Assembly (NCBI GenBank): GCA_038041915.1
Contig: JBBTFH010000110.1
Coordinates: 1 to 58,519, forward strand
Length of the DNA stretch: 58,519 bases
Source: Myxococcota bacterium
Lineage (GTDB): Bacteria > Myxococcota_A > Polyangia > JBBTFH01
Direction of reading: 5' to 3'
The notes under the pieces are model-generated. The model had not been told where the DNA came from. It saw only the letters and a program-made list of their open reading frames with translations, and did no database searches. Made by a program: the position numbers and the translations under genes. Positions 52,721 through 53,860 of the stretch are shown piece after piece. The stretch's first letter is position 1, and every line of letters begins with the position of its first letter.

Positions 52721-53860
52721 ATGGAGAACCTGAAGAAGTATCGGAAGTCCGGCCTCGAGCACTTCATCAAGTTCGTCCGTGATCTGCCGGTGTTGCCGCC
52801 CAAGGCGACCTTCGACCGGCTCGAGGAGCTCGGCTACCGCGGTCAGGACCGCGCGCGCAAGTCGGTCGCCCTCATGGCCTACCGGCACGCGCGACGGATC
52901 AAGCGCGTCTACCTCGACGGCGCGAAGCGCGAGCAGCTCATGCCGAAGTCGAACACCCTGCTGATGGGACCGACCGGCTGCGGCAAGACGCACCTGGTCG
53001 AGCTGCTCTTCCAGCACGTGCTCAAGCTGCCGACGGTGATCGTCGACATCACGACCTACTCGGAGACCGGCTACGTCGGGCAGGATCCGAACACGATCAT
53101 CACGCGCCTGCTGCACGCCGCCGACGACAACCCGCTGCTCGCGTCCATCGGCATCATCTGCCTCGACGAGTTCGACAAGATCGCGTCGGGACAGAACAAC
53201 GCCGTCTTCGCCGGCGCCGGCACGACCAAGGACGTCACCGGCATGGGCGTGCAGCGCGAGCTGCTCAAGATGCTCGAGGCGAGCGAAGTGGTCGTGCCGC
53301 TCGAACTCACCCACTCGACCTACGGCGACCACCTCGTCATGTCGACGGGCGACATCGCGTTCGTCGCGTGCGGCGCATTCTCGGGCTTCCAGCAGGTGGC
53401 GCGGCGGCGCGGCGCGTCGGATCACATCGGCTTCGGACGGAACGGCCCGCGGCGGACCTCGCCGGATCAGATCGCGGTGACCTTCACGGCCGAAGAGGTC
53501 GAGAACATCGCCAACTTCCAGGCGTACGGCTTCCTCCCCGAGCTGATGGCGCGCTTCACCCGCATCATCCCGTTCGAGGCGCTCGCCTTCGGCACGCTGC
53601 GCGACATCCTGTACACGAACGTGATCGAGCGGCTGACGCGCGAGTTCGAGGACGAGGGGCTGCGCCTGGTCGTCGACGACTCGGTGCTCGACCACATCGT
53701 GCAGGACTCGCTGCGCCGCGAGACGGGCGCGCGCGGCCTCGCGAGCATCCTCACGCGCTACCTCGAGGACGCCGCCTTCGAGTCGTTCGCCGAGGTCGCG
53801 AGCGGCGAGGTGCGCGTCGAGATGAAGAATGGCGAGATCGCGGTCCGTCTGACCGGGTAG
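52721..53860 (+). CDS. ClpX-like AAA+ unfoldase lacking the N-terminal zinc-binding domain
   Basis: It aligns with ClpX from the post-ZBD linker onward. Conserved elements are Walker A (LLMGPTGCGKT), pore-1 loop (ETGYVGQD), Walker B (IICLDEFDKI), KDVTGMGVQRELLKMLE, the IGF loop (DHIGFGRN) and sensor II (ETGARGLASIL). There is no CxxC...CxxC at the N-terminus. Confidence 0.88.
   Translation: MENLKKYRKSGLEHFIKFVRDLPVLPPKATFDRLEELGYRGQDRARKSVALMAYRHARRIKRVYLDGAKREQLMPKSNTLLMGPTGCGKTHLVELLFQHVLKLPTVIVDITTYSETGYVGQDPNTIITRLLHAADDNPLLASIGIICLDEFDKIASGQNNAVFAGAGTTKDVTGMGVQRELLKMLEASEVVVPLELTHSTYGDHLVMSTGDIAFVACGAFSGFQQVARRRGASDHIGFGRNGPRRTSPDQIAVTFTAEEVENIANFQAYGFLPELMARFTRIIPFEALAFGTLRDILYTNVIERLTREFEDEGLRLVVDDSVLDHIVQDSLRRETGARGLASILTRYLEDAAFESFAEVASGEVRVEMKNGEIAVRLTG

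Follow-up and report, generated by a model that had tools for sequence, protein, structure and literature searches.

In a 58,519-nt stretch of DNA from a Myxococcota bacterium (contig JBBTFH010000110.1, assembly GCA_038041915.1; this whole stretch is called the window here), the gene at 52721–53860 on the forward strand encodes a paralogue derived from the AAA+ unfoldase ClpX which has neither the zinc-binding domain (ZBD) nor the RKH loop. Judged by its sequence relatives, it belongs to a distinct and old side-branch of the ClpX family, situated inside the ClpX radiation, which we call type D. In Kofleriaceae-like Myxococcota the gene stands alone on the chromosome and is inherited vertically. 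Tentatively, and with slightly less than even confidence, we propose that type D proteins are undescribed ClpP-partner unfoldases, forming roughly a hundred 50%-identity clusters in Myxococcota, Acidobacteriota, Planctomycetota, Spirochaetota and WOR-3. They would choose their substrates without ZBD and RKH loop, about half of them with an N-terminal domain of ~200 residues, and would constitute a fourth myxobacterial Clp specificity factor beside ClpX1–3. The source assembly is a metagenome-assembled genome (MAG) of 3.39 Mb with 83% completeness, in which the window corresponds to contig C110.

The open reading frame (ORF) is intact, begins with ATG and encodes 379 amino acids, its coordinates including the stop codon. 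The Pfam matches of the protein are AAA_2, AAA and ClpB_D2-small; a zinc ribbon or ZBD is not among them. Among the NCBIfam models ClpX takes the first rank, with 217.7 bits for NF003745 and 189.1 bits for TIGR00382; both scores are about half of the curated cut-offs (359 and 370.75 bits) and hence stay below the equivalog threshold. The alignment to these models sets in only at profile position 74 and 69, respectively. The best matches among solved structures are ClpX chains as well (E 1e-44 to 1e-40), and the similarity to ClpX starts at residue ~40, corresponding to ClpX residue ~75–79, that is, past the ZBD and the linker. The HslU model yields only 87.6 bits, with a cut-off of 362.45 bits, and aligns only over the first ~100 residues plus a short segment further on; the I-domain by which an HslU would be recognised is absent from the protein.

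The absence of the ZBD had been proposed in a first-pass annotation of the window, and it is borne out here also for the region before the start codon. Upstream of the ATG the frame is open for 42 codons, which overlap the 3' end of the preceding gene (gene 2, see below). None of these codons is ATG, GTG or TTG, nor do they encode a CxxC...CxxC motif, so that in this frame there is neither an upstream exon nor an alternative start encoding a C4 zinc ribbon. When the whole genome was searched with the zinc-ribbon model PF06689, the matches were confined to the two canonical clpX genes (contigs C216 and C306), with nothing on the window contig. Therefore, a split or upstream ZBD does not exist.

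All elements listed in the first-pass annotation were found at the places given there, and they, like the arginine finger, were read from the sequence and its alignments to ClpX. We counted their conservation over 85 rows of the ZBD-less clade described below, with 49 canonical ClpX sequences for comparison; all motif coordinates refer to the forward strand. In Walker A (GPTGCGKT, residues 83–90, 52967–52990) G88 and K89 are invariant in 85/85 clade members. The pore-1 loop GYVG (residues 117–120, 53069–53080), aligned on the GYVG of ClpX, is nearly invariant, with G, Y, V and G present in 81, 75, 73 and 85 members. The Walker B region IICLDEFDK spans residues 146–153 (LDEFDK 148–153; 53156–53179), and here D149 is kept in 84/85 and E150 in 85/85. 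The arginine finger R278 (53552–53554) occurs in all 85 clade members and in 49/49 canonical ClpX, and the arginine R338 of sensor II (GARGL, residues 336–340, 53726–53740) in 84/85.

The same holds for the IGF loop. In DHIGFGRN (residues 234–241, 53420–53443) the presumed ClpP-docking tripeptide I236-G237-F238 lies on the IGF of ClpX. A tripeptide of a hydrophobic residue, G and F or Y is found in 83/85 clade members (IGF 43, LGF 14, MGF 10, VGF 7, and others), and it is as well conserved as in canonical ClpX. Across this deep clade, purifying selection acts on the IGF-type loop.

Three regions set the protein apart. At the position of the RKH loop it reads ELTHSTYGDH (residues 195–204, 53303–53332 in the ClpX alignment), as the first-pass annotation had noted; the clade consensus is variable there and lacks RKH, whereas canonical ClpX has G-G-K/R-H-P. 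Compared with canonical ClpX, the pore-2 loop region (53186–53248, AVFAGAGTTKDVTG) carries a clade-specific insertion of ~5 residues (FAGAG), which roughly two thirds of the clade share. Finally, a lineage-specific N-terminal helix with the motif RKxGLEHFIKFVR (residues 2–21, 52724–52783) replaces ZBD and linker; it is conserved in close relatives only.

An AlphaFold2 model calculated from a 41-sequence alignment (pLDDT, the predicted local distance difference test, 83.1; pTM, the predicted template modelling score, 0.81) consists of the large and the small AAA+ domain. It also contains the additional helix at residues 2–21, which is modelled confidently (block pLDDT 91–96 from residue 11). 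Two loops are modelled with low confidence and presumably are flexible; they lie exactly at the pore-2 insertion (159–171) and the IGF loop (235–247). In a Foldseek comparison of the model with the PDB, the top 50 matches are all ClpX chains, mostly from ClpXP complexes, with template modelling (TM) scores of 0.67–0.77.

The window protein has many relatives. At ~80% identity, more than 120 (counted as clusters) come from MAGs of Polyangia, Haliangiales and Myxococcales; among 301 sampled genomes of the same phylum 11 hold a close member, concentrated in few families. We searched 1.84 billion cluster representatives and analysed the best 150 matches. Within these, the ZBD and, at the loop position, RKH are both missing from the top ~95 (E below ~1e-45), and canonical, ZBD-bearing ClpX ranks only below them. 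Named members of the clade belong to Kofleriaceae, Myxococcus, Planctomycetota, Blastocatellales/Pyrinomonadaceae, a Spirochaetales MAG and WOR-3. An N-terminal extension of 145–210 residues occurs in about 40 of 68 representatives; the Pfam scan detected no family in it, and it may be a replacement substrate-recognition domain. Such extended members reach 530–600 aa (e.g., P0142, P0153, P0158, P0186 and P0200).

In a maximum likelihood tree of 81 rows (LG+C20, five HslU sequences as outgroup), all ClpX-like rows group against HslU with a support of 93/89. The 47 ZBD-less rows form one clade (100/98) on a stem of 0.68, which joins a small, partly ZBD-bearing sister clade (100/98). Within it, the window protein and the type D proteins of Myxococcus share a subclade of 30 rows (99/96). 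A quick tree of 147 rows, also with HslU as outgroup, is concordant. From this topology it follows that the ZBD was lost once at the base of the large clade and not recently in this genome; a recent loss is not supported. The placement of the protein in the ClpX clade, as in the first-pass annotation, stands as far as the best match and the position inside the ClpX radiation are concerned, but not in the sense of membership of the curated ClpX families, whose cut-offs are not reached.

Proteins of this general kind are already known. In 2024, three ClpX proteins were described for Myxococcus xanthus DK1622, one of which, ClpX3 (MXAN_2743), is without N-terminal domain and RKH, and its deletion leads to heat sensitivity (PMC11423568). 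As the same gross description applies to the window protein, it might be taken for the orthologue of ClpX3. However, Myxococcus sp. CA023 (L125, L128, L130, L132) and Corallococcus terminator (L126, L127, L129, L131) each have four ClpX-like genes: two canonical ones scoring 625–659 bits, a third, which we call type C, with 343–351 bits, and a type D gene with 180–196 bits. The canonical pair is 65% identical to each other, the second copy having K for the RKH arginine. Type C has 356 aa, no ZBD, no RKH and the pore loop GYYG, is 42–45% identical to the canonical pair and forms a clade of its own (100/99). Since its length, the identities and the K-for-R exchange fit the published description (PMC11423568), we infer from these figures that type C probably is MXAN_2743. 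The myxobacterial type D proteins, in contrast, have 381 aa and are 32–35% identical to the other three types and 46% to the window protein, which itself is only 35–36% identical to type C. The window protein is therefore of type D, a paralogue not counted in the previous study (PMC11423568). Four-gene sets, identities and trees agree in this, and we reject an identity with ClpX3 as scarcely credible. Our literature searches found no description of the type D clade, and database labels (ClpX or AAA family ATPase) cover the general kind; the specific clade appears to be unstudied.

Canonical ClpX and ClpP are present as well. According to the profile search, the genome holds two canonical ClpX genes, on C216 (633.8 bits) and C306 (553.5 bits), whereas the window protein scores 188.1 bits. 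The clpX on C216 directly adjoins clpP, so that the canonical clpP-clpX locus for which the first-pass annotation had suggested looking is indeed there, and one clear ClpP is present in this 83% complete genome. A type C gene was not found in it at this completeness. The second canonical clpX (G000:C306:9653-10834) bears a ZBD and has RNR instead of RKH, reminiscent of ClpX2 of M. xanthus, in which the RKH arginine is replaced.

The intact ATPase and pore-1 motifs and the conserved IGF-type loop make a ClpP-docking unfoldase with altered substrate selection a reasonable prediction. In E. coli ClpX, adaptors such as SspB bind to the ZBD, as do some substrates; ssrA-type C-terminal tags are recognised with the help of the RKH loops, and the pore-2 loops contact the N-terminal loops of ClpP. 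By analogy, as they have neither ZBD nor RKH, type D proteins should ignore ZBD-dependent adaptors and probably ssrA-like tags too, and their communication with ClpP may differ from the canonical one. We thus picture a type D protein that would assemble as a hexamer, dock on the housekeeping ClpP via its IGF loops and deliver to it other substrates than ClpX1/2 do. In this picture neither ZBD-dependent adaptors nor the RKH-dependent recognition of ssrA-type tags would take part in the selection. Candidates for recognising the substrates instead are the remodelled channel entrance, the lineage-specific N-terminal helix and the longer pore-2 loop.

Docking on ClpP is, in our judgement, the likeliest mode of action for the window protein, and we regard it as fairly probable. 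Several points weigh against it: clpP is adjacent to the type D gene in no locus examined, the pore-2 insertion could alter or even abolish the communication with ClpP, and ClpX is also able to act without ClpP. The same absence of clpP adjacency, the altered pore-2 loop and the extension of 145–210 aa in about half of the clade, which suggests specialised clients, would suit a ClpP-independent remodelling or disassembly chaperone, in which the IGF-like loop has been retained because it serves the structure or docks on another partner. We consider this unlikely, as the tripeptide is kept as strictly as in ClpP-binding ClpX and the neighbourhoods show no other partner that is conserved.

Those neighbourhoods also decide whether the gene belongs to a local system. 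Upstream of it, on the same strand, lies an inserted two-gene cassette (50763–52683), recognised by Pfam, PADLOC and neighbourhood comparison, which is of interest here as context only. Gene 1 (50763–51293, 176 aa) matches no family. Gene 2 (51283–52683, 466 aa) overlaps it and encodes an XRE-type helix-turn-helix and an M78/ImmA-IrrE peptidase domain; in PADLOC it matches the CapP and RmrA models. Homologues of gene 2 are widespread (~470 aa, 41–58% identity), the closest full-length ones being 57–58% identical. The pair recurs in three unrelated contexts, on a JGI contig, in a Polyangiales MAG and in Desulfatibacillum aliphaticivorans (L122, L123, L124). In each of them an overlapping gene for 161–179 aa precedes gene 2 and is a homologue of gene 1 (36–50% identity, E 1e-31 to 3e-58). 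As no ClpX-like gene is found near the pair in any of these three contexts, the two genes represent a self-contained cassette; it looks like a mobile pair of regulator and partner or a toxin-antitoxin-like pair.

DNA alignment shows that the homology to relatives restarts ~20 nt before the ATG at 52721. The cassette is inserted between the unfoldase gene and its divergent upstream neighbour, in this genome only; none of the 21 other type D loci has it. Over 50500–54100, a scan for promoters and terminators gave no signal, such a scan being uninformative in DNA of 66–70% GC, and repeats flanking the cassette, as expected of a mobile element, did not exceed short ones at chance level. The gap between cassette and unfoldase gene measures 37 nt. 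With the insertion the ancestral divergent promoter region has gone, and transcription may therefore now come from the cassette. The short same-strand gap and the lost promoter make co-transcription and some local regulatory coupling possible, which speaks against an entirely stand-alone gene.

Taken further, the cassette and the unfoldase as third gene could make up an accessory operon of a conflict- or defence-like kind, in which the unfoldase would either act specifically on what genes 1 and 2 encode or cooperate with the M78 peptidase. Besides the short gap, read-through is plausible, since the cassette displaced the ancestral upstream region, and gene 2 looks similar to defence-system regulators of the CapP/RmrA type. 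However, cassette and type D gene co-occur at 1/22 loci, and the pair does without a ClpX-like neighbour in its three other contexts. Moreover, the full-length homologues of gene 2 are at most 57–58% identical, compared with more than 120 relatives of the unfoldase at ~80%, a contrast which fits a mobile gene beside a core gene. On the basis of the neighbourhood comparison (0/3 cassette contexts, 0/21 type D loci) we reject the three-gene operon, which has become very improbable, and with it the module-specific substrate range suggested in the first-pass annotation. We take the cassette to be unrelated to the unfoldase and to form no functional module with it; it landed in the FHIPEP/clpX-D intergenic region of this genome, from where it may drive read-through transcription.

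The ancestral neighbour is a divergent gene of the FHIPEP (FlhA/SctV) family at 48807–50663 on the reverse strand, with PF00771 at 1–301 and 453–655; its central part, profile positions ~300–450, is unmatched by the Pfam model. In relatives with long contigs the ClpX-like gene lies ~100 bp from this divergent gene (L009, L011, L012, L025, L026). Altogether, the adjacency exists in seven loci of close relatives; in the window and in L027 an insert separates the two genes. Homologues of FliP and FlhB occur elsewhere in these genomes, and one could imagine that the unfoldase is functionally coupled to an SctV/FlhA-like export-gate protein in a needle-less type III-like apparatus. Yet only close relatives show this arrangement, and in these the shared housekeeping synteny extends over more than 10 kb. 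L028, L034 and L029 retain the unfoldase but have lost the adjacency; G245 and G007 possess the unfoldase without any FHIPEP match, and next to the members from Myxococcus, Acidobacteriota, Spirochaetales and WOR-3 lie unrelated genes. We read the adjacency, real as it is, as family-level synteny and not as a functional pair, and reject a functional link, for which we see hardly any likelihood.

Some further observations concern this region. In the window's genome the FHIPEP gene is located away from the FliP (C314) and FlhB-like (C92) genes, and the relatives G090, G150 and G250 carry an additional canonical FHIPEP. In G250 a gene for a 325-aa sigma factor of the sigma-70/extracytoplasmic function type stands between FHIPEP and the ClpX-like gene (L027, 9999–10976). 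As this gene and the cassette of the window share the site, this short divergent intergenic region seems to have received insertions repeatedly. Downstream of the ClpX-like gene the relatives carry a gene of the EPSP-synthase family (nine loci), followed by HisG (seven). At this place, directly downstream of the unfoldase, the window has a 966-aa ORF (54002–56902, forward strand) whose N-terminus resembles that of a lipoprotein and which contains numerous cysteine-rich modules in tandem (repeats of the CxGxDDDCDG type).

The immediate neighbours in six diverse distant type D loci share nothing: SH3 and an M28 peptidase in the Spirochaetales MAG, a response regulator in an unclassified bacterial MAG (L040), an FHA/multihaem cytochrome and PIG-L in Blastocatellales, PilZ and an EPSP-synthase family member in a Myxococcota MAG, DUF5335 in Myxococcus, and AbiEii in WOR-3. 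Also among ten neighbours in these six loci there was no partner gene conserved across phyla.

For ClpXP, a model AAA+ protease, the choice of substrates is commonly attributed to the ZBD, adaptors and the RKH loops. A natural, widespread lineage which has neither ZBD nor RKH but a conserved docking loop points to another route of substrate choice. For the myxobacteria it means one Clp unfoldase beyond the three considered in the M. xanthus study (PMC11423568). The annotation is inconsistent ("ClpX" at JGI, "AAA family ATPase" at NCBI), and type D deserves a subfamily of its own. For the window under study, the case for a three-gene conflict system is removed.

With canonical ClpX, the window protein has in common the single AAA+ module, the fold and the co-located Walker A/B, GYVG, arginine finger, sensor II and IGF-type loop. 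It differs by the missing C4 ZBD and RKH, the pore-2 insertion and the extra N-terminal helix, and it is only 31–36% identical, scores at about half of the cut-offs and falls into a separate clade. The nearest other AAA+ family is HslU (ClpY), likewise with a single AAA+ module. HslU contains an I-domain insertion and docks on HslV via its C-terminus; the window protein has no I-domain and stays far below the HslU cut-off. ClpX3/type C of M. xanthus resembles it as an extra myxobacterial paralogue that is without N-terminal domain and RKH and stands alone in the genome; in type C, however, the pore loop is GYYG, the pore-2 insertion is missing and the clade is a different one. An instructive comparison is the engineered delta-N ClpX of E. 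coli (without residues 1–61), which is common in ClpXP structures, binds ClpP and degrades ssrA-tagged substrates. Like type D it is a ZBD-less ClpX ring, and PDB entries 6wrf and 8e7v are among our structural matches. As type D, unlike delta-N ClpX, is without RKH loops and without a native pore-2 loop, it is not expected to share the recognition of ssrA-like tags. Since delta-N ClpX works without it, the ZBD is nevertheless dispensable for docking on ClpP and for unfolding.

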